Shown here in pieces: positions 2,242-36,972 of a DNA stretch of 64,000 nt. Within the stretch, counting starts at the first letter, position 1, and each line of letters starts with the position of its first letter. Under the pieces are notes generated by a model, which ran no database searches, was not told where the DNA came from, and worked only from the letters and a program-made list of their open reading frames with translations. The position numbers and the translations under genes were made by a program. Source of the DNA: an uncultured Gemmatimonadales bacterium (GTDB taxonomy: Bacteria > Gemmatimonadota > Gemmatimonadetes > Longimicrobiales > RSA9); contig CAVUKA010000001.1 in the NCBI GenBank assembly GCA_963741945.1, positions 898,560 to 962,559 of the forward strand, read 5' to 3'.

Positions 2242-4760
2242 ACGCGAAACCGGGCGGCAGCCGCGACGTCGCCGGGCATCGGCCGGGCCAACTGATAGCC
2301 CTGGGCCGACTTGCATCCGAGGATGCGGGCCATCCTGAACTGCTCGCGGGTCTCGACGCCCTCCGCCACGACTTCCATCTCCAGCTCGTCGGCGAGCGCC
2401 ACGATGGTACGGACGATCTCGCTGTTCTCGCCGTTCGCCCCGATCGCGCGGATGAAGGAGCCGTCGATCTTCAGGGTATGGGCCGCGAAGCGGTGGAGGT
2501 AGCTCAGCGACGAGTAGCCGATGCCGAAGTCGTCGATCATGAGGCGGACGCCCAGTTCGCGCAGCACCTCCATCATGTGAATGCTCGTCTCGGCCTGCTC
2601 CATCAGCACGTTCTCCGTCAGCTCCAGCCGCAGCGATTCCGGGGGGGCGCCCGTCTCGTCCAGCGCGCCCCGGAGCTGATCGATCATGTCGCGTTGCGAC
2701 AGCTGGGTGGCCGACAGGTTCACGGCCACGTAGGGACCCCGGTCGTCGGCGATCCACCACTCCCGGGCCCGGCGCGTGGCCTCGCGCAGCGTCCACCAGC
2801 TGATCGGGACGATGAGCCCCGTCTCCTCGGCCACGTCCAGGAACTCGTCCGGGCGAAGCAGACCGCGCTCCGGATGCTCCCAGCGCAGCAGCGCCTCGTG
2901 GCCCAGCAGCGACCCATCACTCAGCGACACGATGGGTTGATAGTGGAGCGTGAACTCCTGCCGCTCCACCGCACGGCGGAGCGCCGTCTCCAGCTCCATG
3001 ACGGCCACTGCCTGGTCGTGCATGGCCCGATCGAACACTTCACTCCGCGCCCGCCCCGCGTTCTTCGCGCGGTACATGGCAATGTCCGCGTCGCGCAGGA
3101 TGTCCTCGGCCTTGCGGTACTCCTCCGAGCTGACCGCGATGCCGGCGCTGATGGTGGCATAGACGTCGCGCCGGGCGATGCTGAAGGGAAGCCGCACGGC
3201 CTCGTGGATCCGGTCCGCCACCGCAGTGGCCTCCTCCACGTCGCTCACGCCGTCCAGCAGGAGCGCGAACTCGTCGCCGCCCACGCGCGCGACCGTGTCG
3301 CCGGGCCGGAGGCAGCCTTCCAGGCGCCGCCCGATCTCCACCAGCAGCTGGTCCCCCACGCCGTGCCCGAGGCTGTCGTTCACCACCTTGAACCGATCCA
3401 CATCCAGGAAGAGCACGGCAAACCCGGGCGTGTCCACCCGCCGCCCCCGCTTCACGAACTGGTTCAGGCGGTCCATGAAGAGCGCCCGGTTGGGAAGCCC
3501 GGTGAGGAGGTCGTGCAGAGCGTCGTGGAGCAGCCGGTCCTCCACCTCCTTCCGCTGCGTCACATCCCTCGCGTTCACCACCACGCCGTTCACGGATGCG
3601 TGGTGCAGCAGGTTGCGCCCGACGGCTTCCAGCGTGCGCCAGCCCCCTTCCCGGTCCCTGAAACGCAGTTCGAGCCGAGAGATCATCCCGGGCTGCCCCT
3701 CCGCCACGGCGAAGACCTCCTTCACGCGCGCCAGGTCTTCCGGATGGATGTAGTCGAACACGGACGTGCCGACCATTTCCTCGGGGGTGAAGCCGAGGAC
3801 CCGGCCCACGGATGGACTCTCGTACGCGATGGTGCCATCGGCGGACAGGATGGTGATGGTATCGAGGGCGTTCTCGATCAGCGCGCGGAAGTACTCCTCG
3901 CTCTCGCGCAGGGCGGCCGTCGACCGCTTCCGCTCCGTGATGTCCTCGATGATCCCCTCGTAGCCGACGGTCTCGCCGCCCGCGGCCCGGTGGGCCGTGG
4001 CGGTGATCAGGCAGTCCAGGACGTGACCGTCCCGGTCCGTGAGCCGGACTTCGTAGTTCCGGACCGAGCCGTTCTCCTCGATCGCGCGCTGGAAATGCTC
4101 GCGGTCGGCAGGATCGACGTAGAGCGCGCTGGCGTTCAGCCGCAGGAGCTCGCGGCGGCTGTAGCCGAACAGGTCCAGCATGGAGCGATTCAGGTCGACG
4201 AAGTCGCCGCTCCGGGTGGTGATGTAGAGCGCGTGCCGGGATTCCTCGAACAGCCGGCGATACCGGCGCTCGCTGGCGATGAGCGCCTCCTGCATCCGCT
4301 TCTGCTCGGTGACATCACGGAAGCTCCAGACGCGACCCACCACCCGCGCCCCGATCCGCTGCGGTCGGGAGAACCGCTCGATGACCCGTCCATCCCGGAA
4401 ACGGAGGACATCGTGTCCGGTCCGCTCGGGGTCCTCGTAGAGGGCACGCACCCGGTCCCTGAATGTGGTCGGGTCCTCCAGCTTCTCCACCACGTACTGG
4501 AGCGCCAGCTCGTCATCGGCCGCCGCGAGCACTTCCTCGGGGACGCCCCAGATCTCCACGAAGCGACCGTTGTAGCTGATGATGCGGCTATCCCGGTCCA
4601 CCACCAGAACGCCATCGGTGGTGGAGTCGAGCGCCGCCTTGAGGAGCGAGGCGGAGCGCTCCAGCCGCTCCTGCACCACGCGGAGCTCTTCAGCCTCCCG
4701 TGCATTCTCGTCGACGAGGTGCGGCTCCAGGTCGGACTCCCGGGTCGCGTCCATTTTCAA
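2226..4760 (-). CDS. PAS-PAS-PAS-GGDEF-EAL c-di-GMP signalling protein
   Basis: 844-aa ORF with repeated PAS-like segments, a GGDEF motif (RVGGDEFALLL), and EAL-domain motifs (HEALLRWEHP, DDFGIGYSSLSYL). Confidence 0.9.
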   Translation of the reverse strand: MKMDATRESDLEPHLVDENAREAEELRVVQERLERSASLLKAALDSTTDGVLVVDRDSRIISYNGRFVEIWGVPEEVLAAADDELALQYVVEKLEDPTTFRDRVRALYEDPERTGHDVLRFRDGRVIERFSRPQRIGARVVGRVWSFRDVTEQKRMQEALIASERRYRRLFEESRHALYITTRSGDFVDLNRSMLDLFGYSRRELLRLNASALYVDPADREHFQRAIEENGSVRNYEVRLTDRDGHVLDCLITATAHRAAGGETVGYEGIIEDITERKRSTAALRESEEYFRALIENALDTITILSADGTIAYESPSVGRVLGFTPEEMVGTSVFDYIHPEDLARVKEVFAVAEGQPGMISRLELRFRDREGGWRTLEAVGRNLLHHASVNGVVVNARDVTQRKEVEDRLLHDALHDLLTGLPNRALFMDRLNQFVKRGRRVDTPGFAVLFLDVDRFKVVNDSLGHGVGDQLLVEIGRRLEGCLRPGDTVARVGGDEFALLLDGVSDVEEATAVADRIHEAVRLPFSIARRDVYATISAGIAVSSEEYRKAEDILRDADIAMYRAKNAGRARSEVFDRAMHDQAVAVMELETALRRAVERQEFTLHYQPIVSLSDGSLLGHEALLRWEHPERGLLRPDEFLDVAEETGLIVPISWWTLREATRRAREWWIADDRGPYVAVNLSATQLSQRDMIDQLRGALDETGAPPESLRLELTENVLMEQAETSIHMMEVLRELGVRLMIDDFGIGYSSLSYLHRFAAHTLKIDGSFIRAIGANGENSEIVRTIVALADELEMEVVAEGVETREQFRMARILGCKSAQGYQLARPMPGDVAAAARFRVWELP

Positions 4761-5912: not shown

Positions 5913-7316
5913 CTACCGCCCGCGCCGGAGCACCCGCTGATGGAACGCGTCGGGCATCGACCGGATGTCCAGTGGCTGCGACGTGCTGTAGTGGCAGTAG
6001 GAGCAGAGGCCCACGTGCGGCACCGGCCCCATGGCGGGCGGTGAGGGCGGCGTCCTTCCGGACACGGCGTATGCCTCCTGCGCCCTGGCCACGGCGTTGC
6101 GGACGAGACGGTCGCTCAACTCCAGGTTGTGCTCACCGCCCGCGCGGGCGACCAGGTCCACATCCGCCCGCGCGGTGGCCAGCAGCGCCCGGGCGCTGTC
6201 CGGCGGATCCGGCAGCGCCTGCTCGGCTTGCCGCAGATACCGCTGCGCCGCGCCGAGCCGGGACTCGACGCCGCTCGTCCACCAGCCGAGCACCTGCGTA
6301 TACTCCTTCTCGTGGCACAGGGCGCACGCCTGCGCCTCGCCCCGGTACGGACCCACCGAGTCGGCTGCCGTCGGGATGTGACAGGACCGACACGTCACGC
6401 CCGCCAGAAACTTCGCGCTGGGCACCACATCCCCTTCCGGAGAGACGCCCAGGATCAGCTGCTGCTGCGCCGCGTGCACGCCCTGGTGGCACGCCGAGCA
6501 CACACTGCTCTCCGGCCACTGCCCGGGGCCATTCAGCTTCACGCCGTGCTCGGACGTGTGACAATCCGAGCAGATCAGGTCCACTGCCGAGCTCATCGCC
6601 GCCACCCGATGCATGTGCTTCTCGTGGCAGGAATTGCAGGTCACACCACTGTGCAGCGGATGGAGATCACGCCCCACGGCTTTCTGGTTCAGCGCGGCAA
6701 TGTCGGTATGGCACTCCCGGCAGCGCGCGCTCGCCACGTCCGTATTCGCCTCCGAGACGTCGTAGTGGCATCGCACGCATCCGATCTCCATCCACGGCAG
6801 CTCCGAATGCGACACCACCACGCCCTGGCTGGTGAAGCGGGAGTGGTTGGGCCGCTGATGGCACACGCGGCAATCCTCCGGGGCGCGGCTGGACACCTGC
6901 GACAGATGACAGAGGGTGCACGCATCCACCGACGGCTCCAGCGGCTCGCCGCCCGCGTCGTGCGTGTGGCACCCCGCGCACGTGGCCTCGACCGGTCCAC
7001 CCTCGCCGTGGTTCCGGTGGCGGAACTCCACCGTGGCCAACCGGACTTCCGGCGGACCGCCGGCTTCGTGGCAGCCGGAAGCCTGGCACGACGATGACGG
7101 AACGGTGGCGCGACCCCGCTCCCCTGCCGGGCCCTGGTGGCACGCGCGGCATGCGAGGTCCGCGTGCGGATCCGCGCGCTGGGCCGAAGCGGCCGGCGCT
7201 GCGGCCACGACCCCCGTGTCGGCGGCGTTCCCTCGCGATGCCCCCGGCCCGGCCGGCTCGCAGCCGGCCAGGGCGGCAGCCAACGCCAGCATCAGCGTCA
7301 GCAGAAGCTTACCCAT
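5913..7316 (-). CDS. periplasmic multihaem c-type cytochrome lipoprotein (12 CXXCH + 1 CX4CH)
   Basis: Start set to ATG 7316 (MGKLLLTLMLALAAALAGC, lipobox). Counted CRACH, CAGCH, CTLCH, CRVCH, CVRCH, CRECH, CNSCH, CSDCH, CSACH, CRSCH, CALCH, CSYCH plus CQASGCH. The upstream part of track ORF 5913..8120 is shadow sequence over the neighbouring gene. Confidence 0.85.
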   Translation of the reverse strand: MGKLLLTLMLALAAALAGCEPAGPGASRGNAADTGVVAAAPAASAQRADPHADLACRACHQGPAGERGRATVPSSSCQASGCHEAGGPPEVRLATVEFRHRNHGEGGPVEATCAGCHTHDAGGEPLEPSVDACTLCHLSQVSSRAPEDCRVCHQRPNHSRFTSQGVVVSHSELPWMEIGCVRCHYDVSEANTDVASARCRECHTDIAALNQKAVGRDLHPLHSGVTCNSCHEKHMHRVAAMSSAVDLICSDCHTSEHGVKLNGPGQWPESSVCSACHQGVHAAQQQLILGVSPEGDVVPSAKFLAGVTCRSCHIPTAADSVGPYRGEAQACALCHEKEYTQVLGWWTSGVESRLGAAQRYLRQAEQALPDPPDSARALLATARADVDLVARAGGEHNLELSDRLVRNAVARAQEAYAVSGRTPPSPPAMGPVPHVGLCSYCHYSTSQPLDIRSMPDAFHQRVLRRGR

Positions 7317-9346
7317 GTCATCATCCCGATCAGCAAGAGACCCAGTCCGAGAGCGAGGAACCCGAGGATGGCGGCCACCAGCGTCTGCCGCCGGTTCGGC
7401 GGCGGCGCGGGGGCATCCTGCTCCTGGTCCGCCGTCATCGCTCCGGCGCTGCGCGCCTCGATGTGGCCCAGGATGCGCGGGTGCTCCTCCTCCATGTACT
7501 CCACCGTCGCGCGGCCCGTGAACATCACCGCATCCAGGGGGAACTTCTCCGGCCGCAAGTGGACGTTGAAGAAGTGGATGGTGAAGATGAACAGGGTGGC
7601 GAGCATGGCCTCGTCGCCGTGCACCACCGTGGCCACGTTGAAGAACCAGCCGGGGACGAACCCGGCGAACAGCTCCGGCAACCAGAGCATGAGCCCCGTG
7701 CCGCCGATGATCGCCACGCCCCAGAACACGGCGAAGTAGTCGAACTTCTCCATGTAGCTGTAGCGCGCGAACCTGGGCCGCGGTCCCAGCCCCAGGAACC
7801 AGCGGAACTGGTTCGTGAAGTCCGTGATGTCCTGCGGGTGCGGCACGATCGAGTCGGGACCCCACAGTAGCCGGCGCCGATCCGGTGCCCGGATCAGTGC
7901 GCGGATCAGGTAGAACAGGTGCGCGGCGAAATAGCCGAACGTGATCGTCGCGCCGACGCGGTGCAGCAGCCCGGCCATGTGCACGCCGCCGAACAGGTGC
8001 ATCAGGCCCGCGGACCACGGCGCGCAGCTGAAGCGCAGTGGCATCCCGGTGAACACGAGCAGGAAGAAGGAGATGATCACCGCGGCGTGCGTCAGCCGGT
8101 GGTACAGCCGGAATCGCCACACGTAGCGCCCCCGCCCGCGCTGCGCCGCATCGAGCGCCACATCCCGGTTCGGCAGGCGGTATCCGTGACCGCTCTTCCC
8201 CCGCGCCGTGTCAATGGCGATGCGCAGGAGCCAGAGCAGCGTGTGCAGCCCGAACATGGCCATGGTCCCGACCAGGAGCCACGTCATGAACTTGTACGCC
8301 CAGTACAGCAGCGGATTGCGGCTCTTCTCGTGCGGATTCGCGTGCGGGTCGAATTTCGCGAACGACGCCGTCGCATCCGGGTGACACGTCCTGCACGTGG
8401 ACACCAGGTTCCCGGGCGCCACCGTCGACTGCGGATTGTCCGCGCCGTGAATCTGATGCGCGCCGTGACAGTCGGCGCAGGTGGCCGTGGCGGTCGAGCC
8501 CAGCGTCGTCGCCTGCCCATGGTATGAGTCCGCGAACGACTCCGCGTACTCCTCGTGGCAGCGCGCGCACGCCTGGACGGTCAGCTCCGCCGCGTGCGGC
8601 CCTGACGGACCCGCCGTCGGGTGGGCGCCATGGCACGCCGTGCACGTGGGCACCTCGACGTTGCTCAGCTCCACCCCGCCGCCGGCGGTCGCCGCCTTCA
8701 GCGCCAGCCCATGGACGTCAGTCTGCCACGCGCTCGCGATGGAGTCGTGGCACGCACCGCACGTACGCGGCTGCGACGCCGGGCTCAGCCTCGACTCGGG
8801 ACGGTCCGGCGGCATCGCCGCGTGCGGCGCATGGCAGGCGTAGCAGGGCGCTTCGCCCGCGTGTGGATCATCATCGCCCAGGCGCTGCGTCTCGTGGCAG
8901 GCGATGCACCGGTCGACCATTGCTGGCATGGCGTCACCGCCCATCTCCAGTGCGGCCGGCCGCGCCACCTGGTGCGTGGTGTGGCACTGCCTGCAGTCCA
9001 CGCCCGTCCGCCCGTCGCCGGCTGCATGCGCCCCCTCCCGCCACGTCGAAGCCACGTCCTCGTGACACGAGGCGCATGTCTGCGACGCCGCCTCCGCCGG
9101 GTGCGGGAACCGGTCGAACCCCGTGTGGCACCGCGAGCACGAGAACCCGGCGTGGGCGGTGCCGTCCAGCAGCGAGTCCGGGACGAGGAGCGCCCGCGCA
9201 TCAGCGAGACTGCGCGTGTGCTGTCTCAGCAGCTCCAGCTCACCGTGGCACTGGGTGCACGTAAGCGCCTGCTGCGCGGAGCCGGGCGACGCCCAGAGGG
9301 CCGCGGCCACCAGCACCGACAGCCCCATCGCGAGTCGGTGTCTCAT
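7298..9346 (-). CDS. multihaem cytochrome c (11 CXXCH) fused to FdnI/HydC-type cytochrome b membrane domain (CbcL-like)
   Basis: Signal peptide MRHRLAMGLSVLVAAALWASPGSAQQ and 11 CXXCH in the first ~330 aa. Then 4-5 TM helices with conserved His (RFRLYHRLTHAAV...FTGMPL, LLHRVGATITF..AAHLFY, VVHGDEAMLATLFIFTIHFF). ATGA overlap with the upstream regulator gene at 9343-9346. Confidence 0.9.
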   Translation of the reverse strand: MRHRLAMGLSVLVAAALWASPGSAQQALTCTQCHGELELLRQHTRSLADARALLVPDSLLDGTAHAGFSCSRCHTGFDRFPHPAEAASQTCASCHEDVASTWREGAHAAGDGRTGVDCRQCHTTHQVARPAALEMGGDAMPAMVDRCIACHETQRLGDDDPHAGEAPCYACHAPHAAMPPDRPESRLSPASQPRTCGACHDSIASAWQTDVHGLALKAATAGGGVELSNVEVPTCTACHGAHPTAGPSGPHAAELTVQACARCHEEYAESFADSYHGQATTLGSTATATCADCHGAHQIHGADNPQSTVAPGNLVSTCRTCHPDATASFAKFDPHANPHEKSRNPLLYWAYKFMTWLLVGTMAMFGLHTLLWLLRIAIDTARGKSGHGYRLPNRDVALDAAQRGRGRYVWRFRLYHRLTHAAVIISFFLLVFTGMPLRFSCAPWSAGLMHLFGGVHMAGLLHRVGATITFGYFAAHLFYLIRALIRAPDRRRLLWGPDSIVPHPQDITDFTNQFRWFLGLGPRPRFARYSYMEKFDYFAVFWGVAIIGGTGLMLWLPELFAGFVPGWFFNVATVVHGDEAMLATLFIFTIHFFNVHLRPEKFPLDAVMFTGRATVEYMEEEHPRILGHIEARSAGAMTADQEQDAPAPPPNRRQTLVAAILGFLALGLGLLLIGMMTWVSFC

Positions 9347-13918: not shown

Positions 13919-14410
13919 TCACGGACTCGTTTCGAGCGGTCCGGGGAGCCTGGTGCTGTCGGAGAGGATCTCGGGGCGGAGCTGATGCAGGATGTAGAAG
14001 GCGGCCGCATCGACTTGGCGGGGGGTGAGGCGCGAGATGCCCCAGCCCGGCATTCCGCCTCTGTGCCCGGTGAAGATCACGCGGCGCAGCTCCGCGATGC
14101 TGTCGAACCGGAACCCGGGGTCCACCAGAGACGGGGGGTGGAGGTCATACTCGCGGTCATAGTCGGTGTCGCCCCGGCCGACGGGGCCGTGGCAGCGGCG
14201 ACATATCTGCGCGAAGACCATGTTGCCGGCGTCCACGCGCTGGCGGTCGGATGCCCATTCGAGAGTGTCGAACATCGCCGGCGTGTATGCGCTGTCGGCG
14301 GCCTCGATGCGGGACTCTTCGGAGGGCGGCGAGAACTTGTGGTCTCCGCACGCGGAGAGCACGAGCGTCGCGGCGAGGGCGATGGAGAGGAGGGCTGACG
14401 AGCGGATCAT
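13919..14410 (-). CDS. monohaem class-I-like cytochrome c lipoprotein
   Basis: Start ATG 14410 (MIRSSALLSIALAATLVLSAC, lipobox). Single CRRCH with a downstream Met-containing segment (GGMPGW). ATGA overlap with the upstream gene at 14407-14410. Confidence 0.8.
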   Translation of the reverse strand: MIRSSALLSIALAATLVLSACGDHKFSPPSEESRIEAADSAYTPAMFDTLEWASDRQRVDAGNMVFAQICRRCHGPVGRGDTDYDREYDLHPPSLVDPGFRFDSIAELRRVIFTGHRGGMPGWGISRLTPRQVDAAAFYILHQLRPEILSDSTRLPGPLETSP

Positions 14411-14784
14411 CGCTCCGGCGACCGATCGGGATGGATCAGGCTTGCGCCGGGCGCCAGCTGCTGGGCCACGCTCATGGCGGAGTCGGCGCCGGCGGTGTTG
14501 CCGAGCGCGAGCTCGGCCATGTAGATGCCGAACCAGGCGGCAGCGAGGTCGGGCTGAAGCTCGACGGCCTGCCGGTACTGCGCGAGCGCGGCCTCGTAGT
14601 TGTTGGCGCGGTACGCGGCATTGCCGCTGTCCAGGGCGGCCGACACACCAGCAGGCAGGTTCGCGCGCTCGCTCTTCACCTCTTCGGCGCTGATGCTCCC
14701 GGTCTCCTGGTCGTCCGCGGAACCGCCGCACGCGCTGAGCGTGAGAACGGCGAGAAAGCCGATGCAGGCGACGCTGCGCTTCAT
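14407..14784 (-). CDS. small TPR-like lipoprotein
   Basis: Start ATG 14784 (MKRSVACIGFLAVLTLSACGG, lipobox). TPR-like helices (GNAAYRANNYEAALAQYRQAVELQPDLAAAWFGIYMAELALGN). ATGA overlap with the upstream stop at 14781-14784. It occupies the tail of track ORF 14407..16560. Confidence 0.7.
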   Translation of the reverse strand: MKRSVACIGFLAVLTLSACGGSADDQETGSISAEEVKSERANLPAGVSAALDSGNAAYRANNYEAALAQYRQAVELQPDLAAAWFGIYMAELALGNTAGADSAMSVAQQLAPGASLIHPDRSPER

Positions 14785-15542
14785 TTCCCCTCCGCGAGCT
14801 GAGTGCCGGCGCCGGGCTCCGGCCGGGCGGCCGTGGCCCGAGGGCGAGGCAGCACGTGGCATGCCTCGCAGTTCTCGCCGGGATTGTGGTTGACCATGCC
14901 CTGATGGCAGACCAGGCAGAAGGTGCGCGTCCGCGGCACCGAGGCCACGCTCGGTGGCGCAGCCTGGTGGCACCCGGAGCCGGCGCACCCGAGGTGGACC
15001 TGCGTATTGTGCGCCTGCGGCTTCGGCTGCGGATGGCACGCCATGCAGTTGCGCTGCGGCTGATGGTGCGCCGTGTGGCACTTCGAGCAGTCGACGTCCG
15101 CGGCACTCAGGGCGGTGCCGCCGGTGTGACAGTTCGTGCACGCCAGGCCCTCGTGGACCCGGTGCTGGAACGGCAGCGTCCGCACGGGCCGGTTCAGCGT
15201 TCCGATGGTGATGTCCATGGTCCGACGCACGCGAACCGTGAGCGATCGTACGGTCCGCTGACCATGACACCGCGTGCAGCTCGAGGCTACGGGCAGCGTG
15301 TGGTGGCACGACCGGCAGTCCTGGATGCTCGTGACCGTCAGCGCCCCGTGCTCGCGCTGCATGGAGTGACACGCCGTACAATCCACTCCCCGGTGCTGCG
15401 CGTGGTGAAACGTCACTGTGTCCTGCGGCGGCGCCAGCTCGGCCGAGACGCGCCGGATCCGCGTCGGCCGGGGCCGCCTCCTCGCCGTGAGCGGCGAGAG
15501 CCAGCCGGACGATGCCGGGATCGAGCGGACCGGCGGAGGCAA
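14781..15542 (-). CDS. multihaem cytochrome c module, c3/c7-like (8 CXXCH + 1 CX4CH); 5' boundary unresolved
   Basis: CTACH, CRSCH, CTRCH, CTNCH, CSKCH, CMACH, CLVCH, CEACH plus CAGSGCH. TVTFHHAQH..CTACH is typical of c3/c7 modules. The only start candidate is TTG 15542. This frame is closed by TGA at 15567-15569. Confidence 0.7.
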   Translation of the reverse strand: MPPPVRSIPASSGWLSPLTARRRPRPTRIRRVSAELAPPQDTVTFHHAQHRGVDCTACHSMQREHGALTVTSIQDCRSCHHTLPVASSCTRCHGQRTVRSLTVRVRRTMDITIGTLNRPVRTLPFQHRVHEGLACTNCHTGGTALSAADVDCSKCHTAHHQPQRNCMACHPQPKPQAHNTQVHLGCAGSGCHQAAPPSVASVPRTRTFCLVCHQGMVNHNPGENCEACHVLPRPRATAARPEPGAGTQLAEGK

Positions 15543-16560
15543 CCTGGATCGGGCCGCTGCGACGGATCATGGACAGCGGCCGTACCGGAGGCGGCGCATC
15601 CGTCTGGTAGATGTCCTGGTGACACTCCAGACAGTCGTGGCCGGTGGCATGGATCCGGAACTCGTGCGCCTTGTGGCAGTTGATGCAGTTCTCCAGCACG
15701 CCCGGGTCCAGCCCACGGTGGTACGGCGTCAGCGTATCCGGCTGGGAATGACAGCCGCCCTGGGAACACGATTGCACCGCCTGCTGCGGCGTGGTCTGCC
15801 GGTGCGGATCGTGGCACGCACCGCATTTCGCGTTGTGCGGCTCATCCGCCGGGAAATCCTTGACCAGCGCCCGCATCTGATGGCAGGACAGGCACTCGCT
15901 CGCGTCCGGCCGGATCGCGCTGGCCAGCTGGGCCGGCGTGGCCTCCTGCCCCACCTGCACCGTGAAGTCGTGACACGTGGCGCAGTGGATCGTGAGATTG
16001 CCCATCTTCCCGAGCCGGATCCGGGTGTTCTCGTGACACCCGGCCTGCCCGCACGTCTGGTCCGTGGGAGTGAACTCGTGCAGCCCCGAGGAATGGCACT
16101 CCACGCATTTCAGACCCTGCAGCGACGGGTCGTCCGACTGCATGTGGATCCGGTGCCCGGCCGTGTTCGCGACCTGCCGCCACTCTTCGGGGTTGCCCTT
16201 GATGTGGCACTCTGCGCACGCCGAGTTGGGCACGCTCGCGTGCGCCGTCAGCTCCTTCGGCTGCTCGACGATCTGCTTGAGCCCCATCTCGCTGCGCTGG
16301 ACGATGTTCGGGTGATGACAGGCCTTGCACCCGAGCCCCCGGTGCGCACTCTTCGCGAATCGCTGATACGGATCCTGCATGAGGTGGCATTGCAGGCAGA
16401 ACTGGTTGTCGTGCTGCACGTAGTTGTAGGTCCGGTACATGAAGACCGAGCCTACGGCCAGTGCCGCCAGGACAACCACACCACCCACCACCTGCACCCC
16501 GGTGGGGAGAGCGCGCAGACGCGCGACGAGCTTCGTTAGAAGTGCTCCAAGCCGAGTCAT
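15541..16560 (-). CDS. NapC/NirT/NrfH-family membrane-anchored multihaem quinol-dehydrogenase-like module (9 CXXCH + 2 CX4CH); 3' boundary unresolved
   Basis: N-terminal TM (VVGGVVVLAALAVGSVFMY) followed by FCLQCHLMQDPYQRFAKSAHRGLGCKACH, the NapC/NirT signature arrangement. Haem motifs stop near nt 15600, but there is no in-frame stop until 14407. The end given here is nominal (340 codons). Confidence 0.7.
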
Positions 16561-16757
16561 AGGTCACAGAAGGTAGGACAGCCCCGGTATACGGGCCAGT
16601 CGGGGATCGTCCCAAAGTGCACGCGGTGAAATCCCGCACGACCCGGACCCGCGTTCCCGCCATGGACGCCGCCGTTCAGCCGCTCCGACCCGCGCCGGAG
16701 CCGGACCGCGCGCTTCCGTAGCGAGGAATCCACCTCACGCACGATTGTCGTAGGATA

Positions 16758-16830
16758 TGGGCCGGGTGGGGCTCGAACCCACGACCGTTGGATTAAAAGT
16801 CCACTGCTCTGCCAGCTGAGCTACCGGCCC
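16758..16830 (-). tRNA. tRNA-Lys (anticodon TTT)
   Basis: Reverse complement GGGCCGGTAGCTCAGCTGGCAGAGCAGTGGACTTTTAATCCAACGGTCGTGGGTTCGAGCCCCACCCGGCCCA folds as a cloverleaf: 7-bp acceptor GGGCCGG/CCGGCCC, GTTCGAG T-loop, anticodon loop CTTTTAA. CCA is not encoded. Confidence 0.9.
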
Positions 16831-16920
16831 TCGCGCGCAAACTAAGCCCGTCCCCCTCACGGTATCAATGCGGCGCTTCCGCTCCGCCTCGCCACCCGCA
16901 TCCCGCCGGTCGGCGGGACG

Positions 16921-17382
16921 CTATTCGCTGCCCCGGTCGCGGACACCGGTCCCCGGGCTGGCCAGGTGGGCGGCGCTGTCCCGGGCCCGCTGGGTGCCGA
17001 GGAGGCAACCCACCACGGACGCGGCCATGAGCGCGAGGACCACGATCACGGTCCCGTTGGGGCTCAGGCCGGTCCACTGGCTCCACCCGAAGCCGAGCGC
17101 GACGACCAGGTTGACGAGCACCCACGCCACGAGTGAGGTCAGACCCAGCGCCACGCCATGGAGGATCGGCGCCTCCACGGTCCGGTAGCCGGTGAACCAC
17201 CCTCCGACCAGGAAGCCGACCACCACGGCGGCGATGGCCCAGGCGGAATCACGGCCCGGCTCGACGCCCATCAGTCCGAGGAAGATGAGACCGAACACCA
17301 CCACGGCCGTGACGGCGATGGAGACCAGCCAGCCGGCGAGCACGCGCACCGGGTGGACGTTCTGCAGATGCTCGGTATGCAT
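16921..17382 (-). CDS. small 4-TM membrane protein, unknown function
   Basis: 153-aa ORF with four hydrophobic helices. No motif recognised. Confidence 0.55.
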   Translation of the reverse strand: MHTEHLQNVHPVRVLAGWLVSIAVTAVVVFGLIFLGLMGVEPGRDSAWAIAAVVVGFLVGGWFTGYRTVEAPILHGVALGLTSLVAWVLVNLVVALGFGWSQWTGLSPNGTVIVVLALMAASVVGCLLGTQRARDSAAHLASPGTGVRDRGSE

Positions 17383-17391
17383 GGCGCTCCT

Positions 17392-22107: not shown

Positions 22108-22432
22108 CTGGTGGTTCTCATCTCTCCTCCCTGGGCCGGGGGTGAGGGTGCGGACAGGCCGCTACGCACGCGCTCGCATCTTCGACCATGTTCATGATGC
22201 AGCTGTGCTTCCAGGTCCGGACGAGGAGGGGTGCCACCATCTCGGGTGAAGACGTGACACGAAGCACACGAAGGGTCGAAGGGGCGCCAACGGTCGACGT
22301 GGGTGTCGACGAGTGGGCAGGCACGCATTATTCTAAAACGAGTTGGAAGTCCTCGTTTTCCAGCGCGCCCGAGGCCTGTCGGACCCGGATCGGCGCTGGA
22401 GTCCCGTGCGCGCCATCTACCTACATGACCCA

Positions 22433-24280
22433 ATGACTCCAGTCGACAATGGCGTGGAGAGCTCCGCTCTCGCGGCAGGAACCACCCTGCCGTCCATGCT
22501 CGCGATGCAAGCGCAACATGCGCCCACGGCTCCGGCAATCCTGGCGCCGCAACGCACGCCCGTATCATACCAGACGCTGCAGCGACGAGTGGGCGAGCTG
22601 GCTGCCGATCTCACGGACAGGGGCATCGGCCGCGGTGACGCCGTGGCCCTGGTCCTGCCGAATGGCCCGGAGTCGGCCCGTCTCTTTCTGGCGGCGGCTT
22701 CGGTCGGTGCGGCCGCGCCTCTGAACCCGGCGTATCAGGCGCCCGAGCTCGAGTTCTTTCTCGGTGATCTCGCGGCCCGGCTCCTGGTGATCGACGCCGA
22801 TCTGGACTCGCCGGCGCGCGACGTTGCGCGGGGACTGGGGATACCGGTGGTGGAGGCGGTGCGGGAGACGGAAGAGATGGAGGCGGGACTCGTGCGATTC
22901 GGCGGCGACGGAGCAGCAACCACGAGAGCAGCCGCCGACGGGCCCGGCGCCCACGATATCGCCCTTGTACTGCATACCTCCGGTACGACGTCGCGGCCGA
23001 AGCAGGTTCCACTCTCCCACGGCAATCTGATGGCTTCGGCCGCCCACATCGGCAGTGCCCTCCGCCTCAGCCAGGCGGACCGCTGCCTCAATGTGATGCC
23101 GCTCTTCCACATTCATGGGCTCGTCGCGGCCGCTCTCTCGTCGCTACGGGCGGGCGGCAGCGTGGTCTGCACGCCGGGATTCCATGCGCCCGACTTCTTC
23201 GCCTGGATGGAGGAAACAGAGCCAACGTGGTACACGGCGGTGCCGACCATGCACCAGGCGATCCTCGCACGGGCGCAGGCGAACCGGGCCGTGATCGATC
23301 GGGCCCGACTCCGGTTCGTACGGTCGTCCTCCTCCGCCCTCCCTCGCAGCACGCTGGCGGAGCTCGAGACCGTGTTCGCCGTGCCGGTGGTGGAGGCGTA
23401 CGGGATGACCGAAGCCGCGCACCAGATCGCGAGCAACCCGCTGCCGCCTGGAACGCGGAAGCCGGGGTCCGTCGGTCCTGCCGCAGGACCGGCCGTGGCG
23501 ATCCTCGGGCCGGCGGGAGAGCGCTTGGGCGCCGATCAAACCGGCGAGGTGGCGATCCGGGGCCCGAACGTGACCGCCGGGTACGCCCATAACCCGGAGG
23601 CGAACCGAACCGCCTTCGAACACGGCTGGTTCCGGACGGGTGATCAGGGATACCTGGACCGCGACGGATTCGTCTTCCTGACTGGCCGCCTGAAAGAGAT
23701 CATCAATCGGGGAGGCGAGAAGATCGCGCCCGTGGAAGTGGATGAGGCATTGATGGGACACCCAGGGGTGCAGCAAGCGCTGGCGTTCGCCGTCCGTCAC
23801 CCCCAGCTGGGTGAAGACGTCGCGGCGGCGGTGGTGCTCCGTGCGGGCGCGCACGTCGCGGAGCGGGAGCTGCGGGAGTTCGTAGCGACGCGCGTCGCGT
23901 ACTTCAAGGTCCCTCGCCGCGTGCTCTTCCTGAAGGAAATCCCGAAAGGCCCCACCGGCAAGCTCCAGCGGATTGGTCTGGCGGATCGATTGGGAATCCC
24001 GGCGTTCGATGCCGTACCCGTTGACGCGCCCCCTGTGGCGCCCCGGACGCCCGTGGAGGAGATCCTGGCGGCACTCTGGGGGCAGATTCTGCGATGCGAC
24101 CCGCCGGGGGTCTACGACAACTTCTTCGCGGCCGGCGGCGATTCGGTCACGGCTACGCAGCTCGTGGCGCGGGTCCGGGACTCGCTCCGGGTTGAGTTGC
24201 CGCTCCTGTCGTTTTTCGATGCACCCACGGTGGCCGACACCGCCGCGGAGATCGAGCGTCTCCTGGCTGCTGAGTCATGA
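22433..24280 (+). CDS. adenylate-forming enzyme (oxalate-CoA-ligase/AAE3/Pcs60-like) fused to a C-terminal carrier-protein domain
   Basis: LHTSGTTSRPK, MPLFHIHGL, EAYGMTEA, GWFRTGD, INRGGEKI and KLQR adenylation motifs. C-terminal FFAAGGDSVTATQL has the phosphopantetheine Ser codon at 24143-24145. The track start is TTG 22343; ATG 22433 is preferred. Start is uncertain. Confidence 0.85.
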   Translation: MTPVDNGVESSALAAGTTLPSMLAMQAQHAPTAPAILAPQRTPVSYQTLQRRVGELAADLTDRGIGRGDAVALVLPNGPESARLFLAAASVGAAAPLNPAYQAPELEFFLGDLAARLLVIDADLDSPARDVARGLGIPVVEAVRETEEMEAGLVRFGGDGAATTRAAADGPGAHDIALVLHTSGTTSRPKQVPLSHGNLMASAAHIGSALRLSQADRCLNVMPLFHIHGLVAAALSSLRAGGSVVCTPGFHAPDFFAWMEETEPTWYTAVPTMHQAILARAQANRAVIDRARLRFVRSSSSALPRSTLAELETVFAVPVVEAYGMTEAAHQIASNPLPPGTRKPGSVGPAAGPAVAILGPAGERLGADQTGEVAIRGPNVTAGYAHNPEANRTAFEHGWFRTGDQGYLDRDGFVFLTGRLKEIINRGGEKIAPVEVDEALMGHPGVQQALAFAVRHPQLGEDVAAAVVLRAGAHVAERELREFVATRVAYFKVPRRVLFLKEIPKGPTGKLQRIGLADRLGIPAFDAVPVDAPPVAPRTPVEEILAALWGQILRCDPPGVYDNFFAAGGDSVTATQLVARVRDSLRVELPLLSFFDAPTVADTAAEIERLLAAES

Positions 24281-25152
24281 GTCCCGGCAAGGAGTTGCGG
24301 AACCGACTGGAGGGGCGCGCGACGCTCCCCTTCATAGGCGTCTACGACGTCTTCTCGGCGTCGCTCGCCGGGCGCCATTTCGATGCCCTCTTCCTCAGCG
24401 GATTCGGCTTCGCCGCCAGCCACTACGGGCTACCGGACGTGGGGTTCGTGGCATGGCCTGACATGGTTTCACTGGTCCAGCGGATCCGCGCGATCCTGCC
24501 CCGGCACCACCTTCTGGTGGACATCGACGACGGCTACGGGGATCCCGTGGTGGCCGCACGCGTCGCTGCGACCCTCGAACAGGCGGGCGCGTCCGGTGTG
24601 GTCCTGGAAGACCAGCGCCGCCCCCGCCGGTGCGGTCATCTCGGCGGCAAGCAGCTCCTCGAGCTGGATGAGTACCGGCCCAAGCTGGAGCGGGTGCTGC
24701 AGGCCCGCTCCGACCTCTTCATCGTGGCCAGGACCGATGCGAGTGACCCACCGGAAGCGCTTCGGCGGGTGCGGGCATTCGCCGAAGCCGGCGCGGATGC
24801 GGTCCTGGTGGATGGGGTGGACCTCGACGTGGTCCGGACTCTCCGCGGAAAGGTGGACCGTCCTTGGGCATTCAATCAGATCGCCGGGGGCAAAGCCGAG
24901 CCGCGATCGCTTCAGGAGCTGAGTTCGGCAGGAATACAAATGGCCATCTACAGCACGCCTTGCCTGTTCGCCGCGCAGCACGCCATCGACCAGGCGTTGA
25001 CACAGCTCATGGCCGATGGCGGACGTCTCCCCGAAGTCGGCCCCGGCCGCCCCGGATTGGCTGACTGCAACGCCGTCCTCCAGGAAAACCTTGGCGGCGT
25101 GATGCACCCGGAAGCCGCGACGACTGCGGATTCCGGTCTACGGCCCCGCTGA
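24277..25152 (+). CDS. isocitrate lyase / PEP mutase superfamily enzyme, lyase-type active-site loop
   Basis: DIDDGYG and LEDQRRPRRCGHLGGK (the K/R-x-CGH gating loop of ICL, methylisocitrate lyase and oxaloacetate acetylhydrolase-type members). ATGA overlap with the upstream gene at 24277-24280. Confidence 0.85.
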   Translation: MSPGKELRNRLEGRATLPFIGVYDVFSASLAGRHFDALFLSGFGFAASHYGLPDVGFVAWPDMVSLVQRIRAILPRHHLLVDIDDGYGDPVVAARVAATLEQAGASGVVLEDQRRPRRCGHLGGKQLLELDEYRPKLERVLQARSDLFIVARTDASDPPEALRRVRAFAEAGADAVLVDGVDLDVVRTLRGKVDRPWAFNQIAGGKAEPRSLQELSSAGIQMAIYSTPCLFAAQHAIDQALTQLMADGGRLPEVGPGRPGLADCNAVLQENLGGVMHPEAATTADSGLRPR

Positions 25153-28100
25153 TGCCCATGGCCACTCCTCCGCCGGAAAGCCTGTCCCACCTTTCACCCG
25201 CGGCCCGCGATCTACTCGCCCGCCGTTCCCGCGCGGACGAATCGTCCTCAGCGGGCAGCGAGCCACTCAGGCATCGGCCGGGGGCCACCGAAGCTCCGCT
25301 CTCCTTCGGACAACAGCAGGTCTGGTTCTTTGAGCAGCTCGAGCCAGGCAGCGCGGTCTATCACCTGCCGAAGGAAGTGCGACTGCGCGGCCCTCTGGAC
25401 GTCCCGGCGCTCGAGCGGGCGCTCGGCGAGGTTGTCCGCCGACACGAGATCTTGCGCACGCGCTACGGCACGCTGGCCGATGGCGCGATCCGCCAGCTCG
25501 TCCTCCCGGCGGCCGGACGAGTGGAATTGCCGTGCGTCGATGTGACCGCGTCGGCAACGCAAACGGACGAGCCGTCGGACGGCACCCTGGCGCAACCCGA
25601 AGCGCTGGCCAGGGGCGAAGGCTCGCCGTGGCGGCGACAGGTCGGCCTCGATGCGCTGCGGCCCTTCGATCTTGCGGCCGGAGAAGTCTTGCGGGCAAAG
25701 CTGTATCGCTTCGGGTCCGAGGACCACCTGCTTCACCTGGTCTTCCACCACATTGCGTTCGACGGCTGGTCGATGGGAGTGTTCCTGCGCGATCTCGCCA
25801 GCGCCTACGGGGGCGCGCTGCGAGGGGATGCGACGTTGCCGCCTCTCCCGATCCAGTACGGCGACCATGCAGCCTGGGAAGTGAGTCGGCTGGAATCGGG
25901 CAGGTTCGATGACGTCATCGACTACTGGCGACGGCGCCTTCGCGGCGCTCCGCCGGAGTCGACCTTCCCTGCATCCCGTCCGCGGCAGGTGGACCGGACG
26001 TATGCGGCGGCACAGGAGCATCGCCGGCTCCCAGACCACCTGAAGAGCGCTCTCCATGACATGGCCCGTCGACAGAACGCCACCGAGTCCGCCGTGCTCC
26101 TGGCCGCGTTCCAGGTCCTCCTGGCCCGCCACTCCGGGGCGCGGGACGTCGTCGTGGGCGTGCCCGTCGCCGGCCGCACCCGCAGTGAGCAGGAGGACCT
26201 CGTAGGCTATTTCGTCAACATGTTGCCCGCTCGGTTGGACCTTGCCGACGACCCTTCGTTTCGTCAGGTGGTCGACCGGGTCCGGACCGGGCTCCTCGAG
26301 GGCTTCGACCATCAGACCGTGCCGTTCGACCGCATAATCTCCGACCTGCGCGTACATCGCGATGCCGGGATCACGCCGCTCTTCCAGGTGGCGTTCAACG
26401 ACCGGATTCTCCCGAACCAGGGAGCAGAGTTCGAAGGCCTGGACGTGGAGATGCGCGCTGGCTTCCACGCCCGGCACCTGCTTGATCTCAGCCTGGAGGT
26501 CGGGCACGTGGCCGGGACAATCGAGTGCGATCTGACGTACAGCCTGGAGCTGTTCGATCCGGGGTACGCCCGTACCCTCCTCCCTCAGCTCGAAACGGTT
26601 CTCCAGGCAATGATCGCCGACCCTGACGCCGCCATTACAGCGGCTCCCCTTCTTCGGCCGGCGGAGCGCTCACGCATCATCGAAGCGGGCCGGGGTCCCC
26701 GACGTCCAGTTCCTCCTTCGACCCTGATCCACGAGCTGGTGCAGGAGCAGGCCGCTCGGGACCCGGAAGCCAGCGCCATCATCGGTGACGAGGAAACGCT
26801 CACGTACGGAGAGATGAGGCGGCGGGCTGCAAGCCTCGCTGCGCGCCTGCGTAACGCGGGAATCGCCCCGGAGACGCGCGTCGGGGTCTTCGTCGACCGG
26901 TCTCCCGGACAGATCGTCGCCCTCCTCGGGGTCCTCGAGGCGGGCGGCGCCTACGTCCCCCTCGACCCATCCTATCCGCGGGAACGCCTGGCCTTCATTG
27001 CCCATGACTCGGGGATGGAGGCGATCGTCACGACGCGGCGGCTTCGCTCGCGCGTCCCCCTCGATTCGATCCCCGCCCTCTGTCTGGATGACCCGTCCAC
27101 GCCCGACGGCTCCGACGCGGCACCTGCCAGCGTCATCAGGAACGTGCCGTCGGACCCGCTGGCGTACATGATATACACATCCGGCTCCACGGGGACGCCG
27201 AAGGGAGTGGAAGTTACGCACGCCTCGGTGGCGAACCTCGCTGCGGCGGAGCGTGACCTGCTCCGCGTCGCGCCGGCCGATCGCGTGCTGCAGTTCTCGA
27301 CAATCAATTTCGACGTGTCCGTGGCCGAGATCTTCACATCCCTCACGGCCGGTGCGGCCGTGGTGGTGTGCACTCCCTCGATGCTCACATCCGTCCCGCA
27401 GTTCGTGCGCGCGTGCGAGGCGAAGGGTGTGACGCTGCTCTCCATGAGCACCGCCCTCTGGCACGAACTCGTGGTGTCTCTGGCCGAAGGCGATGTCGAG
27501 ATGCCGCCCGCCGTGAGAACCGTGATGATCGGGGGTGAAGCCGCGCGCCCGGACCGCCTTGAACTGTGGCGACGCCACGGCTCGGGCATACCCCTCATCA
27601 ACGGCTATGGACCTACCGAGACCACGGTCTTCGCAACTGCCCAGGACCTGACTCACCCGGTGGCCGGGGAGGACGCCGTTGTTCCGATCGGGCGCCCGCT
27701 GCACAACGTGGATGTACACGTCCTTGACGAGCGGATGGCTGTAGTGCCGGCCGGCGTTCCCGGAGAGCTGTACATCGGTGGCCTGTGCGTCGGCCGGGGT
27801 TACCATGATCGCCCGGAGTTGACCGCGGAGCGGTTCCTTCCGGATCCGTTCTCCGCACGACCGGGGGGACGCCTGTACAGGACGGGAGACATCGTGCGGC
27901 GACGCGAGGATGGCGCCCTGGACTTTCTCGGCCGTCGAGACAACCAGGTCAAGATCCGCGGGTTCCGCATTGAGGCCGGTGAGATCGAGGTGGCAATGGC
28001 TGCGCATCCCTCCGTGCGCACCGCCGTTGTCGTGCCGCGGCCCGATGGCGTGGGTGATCTCCGGCTCGTGGCCTACGTGGTGCCGGCCAGTGGCGTGTTC

Positions 28101-31100
28101 GACCGGCGCGTTCTCGCTGACCACCTCCGACGGTCGCTTCCCGAGTACATGATTCCGACGGCCTTCGTGCGACTCACGGAGCTCCCCCTCCTGCCCAATG
28201 GCAAGGTCGACCGGAAGGCACTTCCGGAACCTGATCCGGTTGGGGAAGCCGCGTTCGAGCCACCCCGGGGCCCCCGCGAGAGCGCGCTGTGCGAGATCTG
28301 GGAGAACGTGCTCGGTGTGCAGCCGATCGGACGGAACGTGGACTTTTTCGATGTCGGCGGCCACTCGCTGTCTGCCATGCTGGTCGTCGGCCGCGCGGAG
28401 GCGGCGCTCGGGATGGAGGTGCCGCTCCGGGCGATCTTTGAGCACCGCACCGTAGCGCGCCTGGCGGCCTTCCTGGAACGTGCAGAACGGGAACGGGGAG
28501 CTCTGTTCCCGCCGATCGAGACCGGGACCGATGTACCCGCCCCGCTCTCCTTTGCGCAGCGACGTCTGTGGTTTCTCGATCGGCTGGCACCGGGAAGACC
28601 AACGTACAACATCCCACTCGCGTTCCAGCTCCGCGGCCACCTTGATCCCTCAGCACTGCGCAGCGCCTTGCGACGGATCGTGGAGCGGCACGAGCCGCTG
28701 CGCTCATGGATCCGCGAGGGCGTCAGCGGACCCGTCCAGGTCGTCGCGCCTGCCGACCTGTTCGAGCTCGCCGTCGAAGAGGTCCCGGGGGGTCCTGAAG
28801 ACTCCCAACCCCGGGTGCTGCGCCGCCTGGAGGAGGAGGCGCACCGTGCGTTTCAGCTCTCGGACGAAATCCCGTTTCGCGCTCATCTCTTCCGGCTGGG
28901 CGCGCGCGAGCACGTGCTCTTCCTCTGCCTTCATCACACCGCTGCGGACGGCTGGTCCGTCGACATCCTCTTCGCGGAGCTTGAAGCGCTCTACGGCGCC
29001 GCCCTCGCCCGTGCGGAGCCGGACCTGCGGGCGCTCCCGGTCTCCTATTCCGACTACGCGAAATGGCAGCATCGGCACGAGGGTCTCCTGCAACCGGGCC
29101 TCGAGCGTTGGGTGAAGCGACTTCAGGGTGCGCGTGCGCTGGAGCTGCCCGTCGACCGCCCGCACACAGGAGTGCAGAGCGGCGCGGGCGGGGAGAGTCG
29201 AGCGCGGCTGGACGGCCACGTTCTGGAAGAACTGCGCGATCTCGCGCGAAGTGAGCAGACCACTCTCCACGTGGCACTATTGACTGCGTTCCACGTCATG
29301 CTTTCCCGGCTCAGCGGCCAGGATGACATCGTAGTCGGCACGCCCGTGGCGGGCCGCGTTCGGCCGGAGCTCGAGCCGCTCGTCGGCATGTTCGCCAACA
29401 CGGTCCCCATTCGCGTGGACCTCTCCGGCGAGCCGTCGTTCCTCGAAGCCTTGCGCCGTGTCCGCGCCGTGACCCTGGCGGTCTACGGTGATGAGGCAGT
29501 GCCGCTCGAAGCCATGGTGGAGGCCAGTGGGGTCGAGCGCGACGGCAGCGCCAATCCTCTGATCCAGGTGGCATTCGCGCTGGCAGCGGACGGTCGACGA
29601 GCGCCCCGGCTGCACGGTCTCGAGGTGGAGGACCTGGAGCTGCAGACGGCTACCGCGAAGTTCGACCTGTACCTCGCGGCCAATCCCAATGCCGATGGTC
29701 TTGCGCTGCGTCTCGAGTACGATGCGGACCTCTTCCAGGGCCGCACCGCCGCGCACCTCCTCGAGCTCTTCAAAACGCTGGTGTCCGCGGCTGTCGCGGA
29801 TCCCGAACGCCCCTTGGCGGATATCGACCTCTCCGACGACGAGGAGCGCCAATGGGCCGTCGACTGGAACCGGACCGAGCGGCCGTTCCCCGGCGACACG
29901 GTGCACGAGCTGTTCACCACGGTGGCCGCACGTACACCCGACGCTGTGGCCGTGGAGGACCCACACGAGCGACTTACATACGCAGACCTGGATGGCCGAA
30001 GCGCAGCGCTGGCCGGGCAGCTGGTGTCGCTGGGGGTGGAGGCGGGCGAGCGGGTCGGCGTGTTCATGGAACCGGGCGCGCCGCTGGTGGTTTCCATGCT
30101 GGGCATTCTTCGGGCGGGCGCCTGCTACGTTCCGCTCGACCCCGCACTCCCTGGCCAGAGACTGGCGCTCCTGATCGAGGACGCGGGCATCCGGCACGTA
30201 GTGGCGTCCGGCCGGGTTCCCCCCGGCCTCCGGGCGACGGGCGTCGAGATCGTGGAGGCCCGCGACGGTCGCGACCAGCGCCTCCGCGACGTGGCCCGGC
30301 CCGCTTCTGTCGCCGCAACCGCGAATGACCTCGCCTACGTCCTCTACACCTCCGGCAGCACGGGCCGGCCCAAGGGCGTGGCCGTACCGCATCGGGCAAT
30401 CGTCCGATTGGTTCGGAACTCCGACTATGTCGACCTCCGGACCGATGACGTGGTGGCGCAGGTCTCCACCCCCAGCTTCGATGCCGCCACATTCGAGATC
30501 TGGGGAGCGCTGCTGAACGGCGCCCGGCTGACCATCCCGGACAGCCGCCTGCTCTCGCCCCGGGAGCTCGAGGGGTTCCTTCGCGACCGAGGAGTGACAA
30601 CGCTGTTTCTGACCACGGCGCTCTTCAACCAGGTGAGCCGGGAGCGCCCCGCTGCATTCGGATCTCTGCGCCAGCTCCTCTTCGGTGGGGAGACCGCCGA
30701 CGCGGAGGCCGCCCGGCGCGTCCTGGATGGCGGCGCCCCGCCGAAGCGCCTGCTGCACGTCTACGGGCCTACCGAAAACACGACATTTTCAACTTGGTAC
30801 GCCGTCCAGCACGTACCGCCCGGTGCCGCCACACTGCCGATCGGGCGCCCGATCGCCAATTCCACCGCGTGGGTCATGGACGCGCGAGGAAAGCTGCAGC
30901 CACGGGGACTCTGGGGCGACCTGTACGTGGGCGGCGTGGGCGTGGCCGCCGGCTATCTCGGGGCGGCCGCGGCTGAGGCCGACCGTTTCGTTCCGGACCC
31001 GTTCGCAAATGCGCCCGACCGCCGGCTTTACCGGACCGGAGACCGCGCGCGCTGGAACCTGGATGGCGAACTCGAGTTTGGCGGTCGACTCGACACCCAG

Positions 31101-32579: not shown

Positions 32580-33321
32580 GATCGCGCGTTCTGGTGAGCC
32601 GCCCCCGCTACAACCCGACGAGGTTCATGTCTGGCGCGCTGTTCTCGGGCTCGATCCAGCGGTCGAGCCAATGCTGGACCGTTTCCTTTCACATGCCGAG
32701 CACAGGCGCGCGACGCTGTTCCACCGGACAGCCGATGCCCGGCTCTTCCGCTTCGCGCATGGTTTCCTGCGACTGATTCTCGCCCGCTACACCGGCACCC
32801 TCGATCCAGGCGCGATCTCGCTGGCGAACGATGCTCGGGGAAAGCCGCGGCTTGCCCGCGCCAGCGGCTGCCGTCCTGTCGAATTCAATCTCTCGCATTC
32901 CGGGGATGCGGTCCTTGTCGCTTTGACCCGAACTCGGCACGTCGGTGTCGACGTCGAGACCCTGGATCGCGCGCCCGATGCCGAGGCCATCGCCCGTCGC
33001 TTCTTCGCTGCGCCGGAGCTGGCCCGCATTCTCGCCAGCCCGCCGGCGCAGCGTGCCGGGTTATTCCTGCGACACTGGGTCATGAAGGAAGCGTTCGTGA
33101 AAGGGTTGGGGCTCGGTCTCGGCGCCATCGACCTCAAGGCGTTCGCCATGGACCCCGACGCCACGAATGGACGCATCCATCCGCTCACGCGCGAGATGCA
33201 CCGGCACTCGAAGACCTGGGCAGTGGCCGAGGTCGCGGCCCCTGAGGGCCACGTCGCCGCCGTTGCCGTCAACACCCCCGTGCTCCGCTGGAAGGGCTTC
33301 GCCTGGCAAGGCCCGATCTGA
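32572..33321 (+). CDS. Sfp-type 4'-phosphopantetheinyl transferase
   Basis: FNLSHSGDAVLVAL, VGVDVE and WVMKEAFVKGLG motifs. GTG start overlaps the NRPS stop (32572-32579). Confidence 0.85.
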   Translation: MSEIARSGEPPPLQPDEVHVWRAVLGLDPAVEPMLDRFLSHAEHRRATLFHRTADARLFRFAHGFLRLILARYTGTLDPGAISLANDARGKPRLARASGCRPVEFNLSHSGDAVLVALTRTRHVGVDVETLDRAPDAEAIARRFFAAPELARILASPPAQRAGLFLRHWVMKEAFVKGLGLGLGAIDLKAFAMDPDATNGRIHPLTREMHRHSKTWAVAEVAAPEGHVAAVAVNTPVLRWKGFAWQGPI

Positions 33322-33408: not shown

Positions 33409-33556
33409 CCGAGCCGTACGGGACCGCGCGGACGTTCGTCGCCCGCGCGGGGCGTTCCCCCACGTCGCTGCGGGTGATTTTCCTCCTTGACATGATGTTC
33501 CCTACAAATGAACCTCCAGTCGGGAAGCCCCTGCTGACCTCTGTCGTTGGAGGTTC

Positions 33557-36954: not shown

Positions 36955-36972
36955 TGCGGCACGACCGTTGCC
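36955..36972 (+). promoter_or_regulatory. sigma-54 (-24/-12) promoter
   Basis: tgcGGCACGaccgTTGCc: GG at 36958-36959 and GC at 36970-36971 (12-nt offset) fits TGGCACG-N4-TTGC. It lies about 45 nt upstream of ATG 37014 and downstream of the two palindromes and an AT-rich stretch (36921-36950). Confidence 0.7.

Follow-up and report, generated by a model that had tools for sequence, protein, structure and literature searches.

The locus at 16560..14781 on the minus strand of the window (the whole 64,000-nt stretch of DNA that was analysed, with a GC content of 69%) is one gene for an NrfH/NapC-anchored 20-haem cytochrome that carries a 1-nt indel. Its single-gene ancestry was shown by comparison with homologous proteins and loci. 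With modest confidence we infer that the one extra nucleotide is a consensus or assembly indel rather than a real mutation, and because the break most likely has this origin the organism would really carry an intact gene. The main value of the result lies in annotation: the locus should be recorded as one frame-interrupted (or corrected) gene, and neither as a 717-aa fusion nor as two cytochromes. The underlying family, a strictly conserved NrfH-anchored cytochrome with 20 haems that is widespread in Longimicrobiales/Gemmatimonadota, is annotated but uncharacterised, and the interrupted gene itself is an ordinary one, of low interest as a recoding candidate. The coordinates are collected in Table 1.

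Table 1. Features of the cytochrome locus and of the NRPS cluster; positions are counted from the first letter of the window.
Feature	Position	Strand	Remarks
Frame-0 ORF	16560..14407	(-)	ATG 16560, stop codon 14409-14407, 717 aa, no internal stop
+1 frame	15566..14784	(-)	8 CXXCH + 1 CX4CH (CAGSGCH) = 9 haem motifs
5' part of cytochrome gene	15481..16560	(-)	frame 0 from ATG 16560
3' part of cytochrome gene	14781..15441	(-)	+1 frame; 9 haem motifs in c3/c7-like modules
Break interval	15442..15480	(-)	net +1 nt (3n+1), inside Ala/Pro-rich spacer
TGA 15569-15567 and TTG 15542-15540 of the shifted frame	15540..15569	(-)	not gene signals
Base run GGCCCCGGCC	within 15400-15520		break region
Joined-protein stretch spanning the break			RLALAAHGEEAAP...APPQDTVTFHH (LALAAH...QDTVTFHH)
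TPR lipoprotein	14407..14784	(-)	125 aa, MKRSVACIGFLAVLTLSAC...; in frame 0
Mono-haem cytochrome c lipoprotein	13919..14410	(-)	Cytochrome_CBB3 domain; ATGA-coupled (14410-14407); conserved operon partner
Stand-alone A-T protein	22568-24265	(+)	NRPS cluster
PEP-mutase/isocitrate-lyase-like protein	24274-25152	(+)	NRPS cluster
C-A-T-C-A-T-TE megasynthetase	25065-32579	(+)	NRPS cluster; ~2500 aa; lower GC3, ~0.80-0.83
Phosphopantetheinyl transferase	32935-33318	(+)	NRPS cluster

A sequence-only reading of this DNA had described an ORF running without a stop from 16560 to 14407 with 9 CXXCH and 2 CX4CH motifs, and eight further CXXCH in a +1 frame that is closed upstream by a TGA and offers a TTG start. 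All of these were found. The 11 haem motifs of frame 0 fall at residues 55-314, and beyond residue 314 the ORF is Ala/Arg/Gly/Pro-rich and devoid of haem motifs. The +1 frame is closed upstream by TGA 15569-15567, has TTG 15542 as its earliest start and terminates at TGA 14783-14781. As the first of three options between which it made no choice, the same reading had considered a protein of ~590 aa and 17 haems interrupted by a 1-nt indel; the single gene and the indel stood, and the haem count was corrected to 20 (11 in frame 0 and 9 in the +1 frame) because the CX4CH of the shifted frame had been overlooked. The openness of frame 0 over this length is expected by chance at this GC content (P ~0.13), as stops at this offset occur at 0.0077 per codon in this genome's genes and 13% of 262-codon stretches are open. 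The broken ORF extends as far as 14407 because the TPR gene happens to sit in frame 0. The distribution of 20 invariant motifs over two frames is far beyond chance.

The principal evidence for one gene came from a 592-aa query in which frame 0 (16560..15451) was joined to frame +1 (15449..14784). It recovered at least 119 homologues, each a single protein of 525-636 aa, with 89-100% query coverage and 47-65% identity; among the 120 matches listed, all but one are single proteins of this size. They derive from Longimicrobiales/Gemmatimonadota MAGs and from metagenomes, and some are titled "NapC/NirT family cytochrome c". In the alignment of the 119 homologues, every sequence (119/119) has 19 haem motifs out of the 20, and the last one is present in 118/119. 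The window has them all: frame 0 accounts for 11 and frame +1 for nine. When the two halves were searched separately by tblastn, they lay in the same frame every time at eight loci (L002, L003 and L005-L010), and the closest relative (L001/L004) is continuous across the site of the window's break. The orthologous loci therefore show the continuous ORF that the sequence-only reading had proposed to look for, and a separate stop with an export-competent start, the opposite outcome, was absent from 119/119 homologues and 8/8 loci. Since the homologues are single proteins, the motifs are invariant and both halves are co-framed at eight loci, one gene is the ancestral and general state.

The break lies in the spacer between the two haem-rich halves, which is Ala/Pro/Gly/Ser-rich and 2-30 residues long in the homologues. 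The frame jump had been located near 15430-15566; its existence was borne out, and homology together with codon usage narrowed it to 15480-15442. The junction alignment limits the break to 15483..15435: on the frame-0 side, the conserved P[IV]R[LV]ASAGP.DP..[AV]RLALAAH is read as PIQVASAGPLDPGIVRLALAAH and ends at 15484, and on the +1 side the conserved QDTV.F.H.QHRGV[ED]C..CH is read from ~15434. DNA alignment with the closest relative revealed in-frame length differences within the spacer in addition to a net one-base excess in the window. In a codon-usage likelihood scan, with frequencies drawn from 18,068 of the window's codons, 15480-15442 was the only place where the switch stayed within 3 log units; positions upstream of 15483 and those downstream of 15441 were disfavoured by at least 3.6 log units. 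The GC3 frame plot had suggested a switch near 15570, which was overruled by homology and codon likelihood; the plot is misleading here because every frame of the spacer has a high GC content and several codons of frame 0 end in T in this part. At the TGA of 15567-15569 and the TTG of 15542 it is still frame 0 that is conserved as coding sequence, so they are neither gene signals nor boundaries. The sole homopolymer of four or more bases in the break interval is CCCC (15473-15470). A 10-bp palindrome, CTCGGCCGAG (15447-15438), overlaps the interval and extends 4 nt past it, and a repeat search around the junction gave weak GC-rich inverted repeats and nothing more.

Immediately downstream, the ATG of the TPR gene (14784-14782) overlaps the TGA of the cytochrome gene (14783-14781) as ATGA, and the same overlap is present in the closest relative (L001). 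The coupling to the TPR gene had been noted from the letters and taken as support for translation of the shifted frame; it is indeed present, and it marks that frame as the ancestral coding frame, not as the product of a frameshift in use. After the cytochrome and the TPR lipoprotein, the operon encodes the mono-haem cytochrome c lipoprotein, then a membrane protein of 406 aa, a histidine kinase followed by a sigma-54 response regulator, and finally two MtrC-like multihaem cytochromes of 672 aa and at least 377 aa; the operon is conserved in relatives. The latter two, at 5913-9334 (-) downstream of the kinase and sigma-54 regulator pair, match Paired_CXXCH, c7 and MtrC/MtrF domain II/IV, and L001, L003 and L004 have the 672-aa cytochrome in synteny. 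A scan for sigma-54 promoters gave 45 matches against 57 expected by chance, none of them upstream of 16560. A tRNA-Lys(UUU) gene at 16758-16830 (-) lies immediately upstream of the cytochrome gene and separates it from the gene of a DUF3792-like membrane protein (16921-17391). The cytochrome cluster is adjoined by an 833-aa signalling protein with a PAS x3-GGDEF-EAL arrangement at 2262-4760 (-).

The gene shows no decay past the break. In comparison with the closest relative (L001/L004), dN/dS was 0.09 over the 226 N-terminal codons, 0.19 in the middle part and 0.11 over the 215 codons past the break, with amino acid identities of 77-91% per segment. Downstream of the break 9/9 haem motifs are intact, and there is no second lesion and no stop in the +1 frame before the end of the gene. 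GC3 is 0.88-0.89. An old pseudogene was dismissed on these values, as both relaxed selection and secondary lesions are absent. Since decay and a second lesion are lacking and the ATGA coupling is kept in both genomes, the break is either not real or very recent.

The first of these two options, an error of the consensus or assembly, is the one that we hold somewhat the more probable. It is favoured by the complete lack of decay and by the CCCC homopolymer in the length-variable spacer, a kind of site at which mixed strains may corrupt a consensus. A precedent is found in the closest relative. The genome MFD01721.bin.1.53 (L004) is a Nanopore-only assembly with one Medaka round from the Microflora Danica catalogue (PMC12313526). 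It carries its own 1-nt insertion in the same gene, CAG to CGAG at ~5996-5999 of L001 (~6681-6684 of L004), directly after the invariant haem-7 CLxCH, and the called ORFs on its 898-kb contig are split to 239 and 376 aa. Isolated indels thus occur in the assemblies of this clade. Nevertheless, the prior for an artefact is weakened by the clean remainder of the window, which implies a low assembly error rate: no other frame breaks were seen in the GC3/ORF map of the window or in ~35 genes by Pfam, and three abutting ORFs at 62.5-64 kb, a 2240-aa NRPS segment, PBP1, LigA, SRP54 and others were intact when spot-checked. A search for a second copy of the strain's sequence gave nothing above 77% amino acid identity in the genome and metagenome collections, and neither the 717-aa ORF nor L19 had an exact match on record.

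A very recent frameshift mutation, either fixed or a strain variant, that inactivates the cytochrome is the alternative with the most weight, a serious one that we consider appreciably less probable than an artefact. The product would consist of 11 haems followed by ~230 aa of nonsense and would be fused in frame to the TPR lipoprotein, and translation of the coupled downstream genes would be disturbed as well. That the window is otherwise without frame breaks fits such a mutation, since random sequencing errors must be rare here. The ~12 other syntenic genes are intact in both the window and MFD01721.bin.1.53, so that in the sister genome this gene only is broken, at a different site, and this could reflect a relaxed need for the cytochrome in the lineage; it could also be redundant, given the further candidates for multihaem cytochromes and quinol oxidases at 5913-9334 and 38159-40267. 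Yet the coincidence is weak, as a sole break in the ~9 kb of coding sequence that was compared would hit this 1.8-kb gene with a chance of ~0.19, and the break of L004 comes from a Nanopore-only assembly. The dN/dS and the haem motifs downstream of the break, the absence of a second lesion and the GC3 likewise give no sign of relaxed selection. The stronger proposition, that the extra base is real and that the lineage shared with MFD01721.bin.1.53 has repeatedly switched off the cytochrome by independent 1-nt insertions, is improbable. If true, it would mean either that the gene is being lost or that it is turned on and off reversibly, and low-level +1 frameshifting might still yield some full-length protein.

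Programmed +1 ribosomal frameshifting within the spacer, by which the unaltered sequence would yield the complete 20-haem protein, had been among the options of the sequence-only reading and was rejected as highly improbable. Three features would suit recoding: both frames are undamaged and evolve under purifying selection, the shifted frame is the one to which the next gene is coupled, and a GGAGG-like GAGGAGG (15483-15477) stands just upstream of the break interval. The break itself, however, is conserved nowhere: 119/119 homologues, 8/8 loci and the closest relative (77% amino acid identity) read through the site. Known +1 slippery codon pairs include CUU UGA, CCC-N and CUU AGG, and 15480-15442 contains neither an in-frame stop nor a known pair of this kind; no frame-0 P-site codon in this interval re-pairs in +1. 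Transcriptional slippage is no better placed, as the interval has no A/T homopolymer to support it. An Rfam scan of 14300-16900 detected only a tRNA and no element in the gene. The likeness to prfB (RF2) is limited to the need of a shift into the +1 frame for the full-length product, whereas here the in-frame stop and a CUU-type slippery codon are missing and the break is conserved in no orthologue. The shift of prfB is conserved across most bacteria.

The remaining option, an 11-haem NapC/NrfH-like protein and a separate 9-haem protein started from TTG 15542, overlapping or made by read-through, is scarcely credible: a TTG-initiated ORF (15542..14781) does exist, but the first gene has no stop before 14407, the TTG lies inside the PIQVASAGPLDPGIVRLALAAH motif that is conserved in frame 0, codon usage disfavours frame +1 by at least 5 log units upstream of 15483, none of the 120 matches listed is split here, and the ORF, which starts as MPPPVRSIPASSGWLSPLTARRRPRP..., lacks a signal peptide or TM segment. 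Attachment of c-type haem requires periplasmic export, and with a 15-residue hydropathy that peaks at 0.35, where the real anchor reaches 2.54, the product of this ORF would not be exportable alone for it. The two-gene reading was thus rejected on the missing export signal as well as on the single-protein homologues, the co-framed loci and the position of the TTG.

Returning to the single interrupted gene, the rejoined frames would encode a protein of ~590 aa with an N-terminal TM helix, an NrfH/NapC-type tetrahaem module and 16 further c-type haems. The 5' part holds the anchor, the tetrahaem module, seven more haem motifs and then the conserved PIQVASAGPLDPGIVRLALAAH motif that ends at 15484. 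An AlphaFold2 model of the rejoined protein from a 46-sequence alignment had a mean pLDDT of 58.8, in which only the TM helix (residues 20-47, pLDDT 90-95) is confident, and Kyte-Doolittle hydropathy over 15 residues reaches its maximum of 2.54 at residues 22-36. The CXXCH motifs of the tetrahaem module start at residues 55, 78, 115 and 152, each invariant in 119/119 homologues. Haem 1 has the form CXXCHXM (CLQCHLM, residues 55-61) and its Met is likewise invariant in 119/119; in NrfH, the Met of CXXCHXM at haem 1 is a ligand of the quinol-site haem. Pfam PF03264 matched with 28.5 bits against a cut-off of 24.1, although over profile positions 7-76 of 174 only, and the NrfH equivalog TIGR03153 reached 56.4 bits, below its cut-off of 134.2. 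The best PDB profile match was NrfH of Desulfovibrio vulgaris (2j7a_C, E=7e-6, query 19-85). Judged from these profiles, the protein is by its N-terminal module a member of the NapC/NirT superfamily, NrfH-like and not an NrfH orthologue. For the other 16 haems the resemblance is to ActA of alternative complex III and to c3/c7 modules.

As a separate observation, the P[IV]R[LV]ASAGP motif (15484-15549 (-), residues 338-359) is highly conserved in the top ~30 homologues examined. It is free of haem motifs, separates the two haem-rich halves and has variable spacers on both sides; it could be the source of a distal His ligand or a docking helix.

The most likely function, which we infer, is that of a quinol dehydrogenase that would feed a periplasmic or outward haem wire, analogous to CymA or ImcH. 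Electrons would pass from the quinol pool along this wire in the periplasm and would be delivered to the co-encoded mono-haem cytochrome c lipoprotein and to the neighbouring MtrC-like multihaem cytochromes. Independently of the frameshift, the family is a reasonable candidate for the step from quinol to periplasm within a chain of extracellular or periplasmic electron transfer in Gemmatimonadota. A second quinol-oxidase candidate is found at 38159-40267 (+), where a 703-aa multihaem cytochrome c is fused to a C-terminal cytochrome b561 (Ni_hydr_CYTB) domain in a CbcL-like arrangement. Ahead of it lie a HAMP histidine kinase and a sigma-54 response regulator of its own (33548-36642 (+)) and a 1-mismatch match to the sigma-54 -24/-12 promoter at 36957-36971 (+) (CGGCACGACCGTTGC), such matches being not above chance window-wide. 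The stretch at 22337-33321 (+) is an NRPS cluster.

The N-terminal part has its closest counterpart in the NrfH/NapC/NirT/CymA family, with which it shares a single N-terminal TM helix, four CXXCH motifs within the following ~100 aa and the CXXCHXM of haem 1. The members of that family have 160-200 aa and four haems, in contrast to ~590 aa and 20 haems here, and no nrfA, nap or tor partner gene is present nearby. The C-terminal half is similar to c3/c7 and poly-c3 cytochromes (PpcA, the 16-haem HmcA and nonahaem cytochrome c): it scored 33.5 bits with Cytochrome_C7 and 32.4 bits with Cytochrom_CIII, gave PDB profile matches to c3 and PpcA of E ~1e-4 and has CX4CH sites as in c3. Unlike in those proteins, the modules are fused to a membrane anchor, and the HmcA equivalog scored 15.9 against a cut-off of 400. 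ImcH of Geobacter sulfurreducens is an inner-membrane multihaem quinol oxidase with a NapC/NirT domain that acts in extracellular electron transfer (PMC6295460). The likeness of the present protein to it is one of concept and analogy only, namely a NapC/NirT-type quinol module that is extended by extra c-type haems. The setting is also comparable, as the genome of the window has a CbcL-like fusion of cytochrome b with multihaem cytochrome c and MtrC-like cytochromes. ImcH itself has seven haems and several TM helices.
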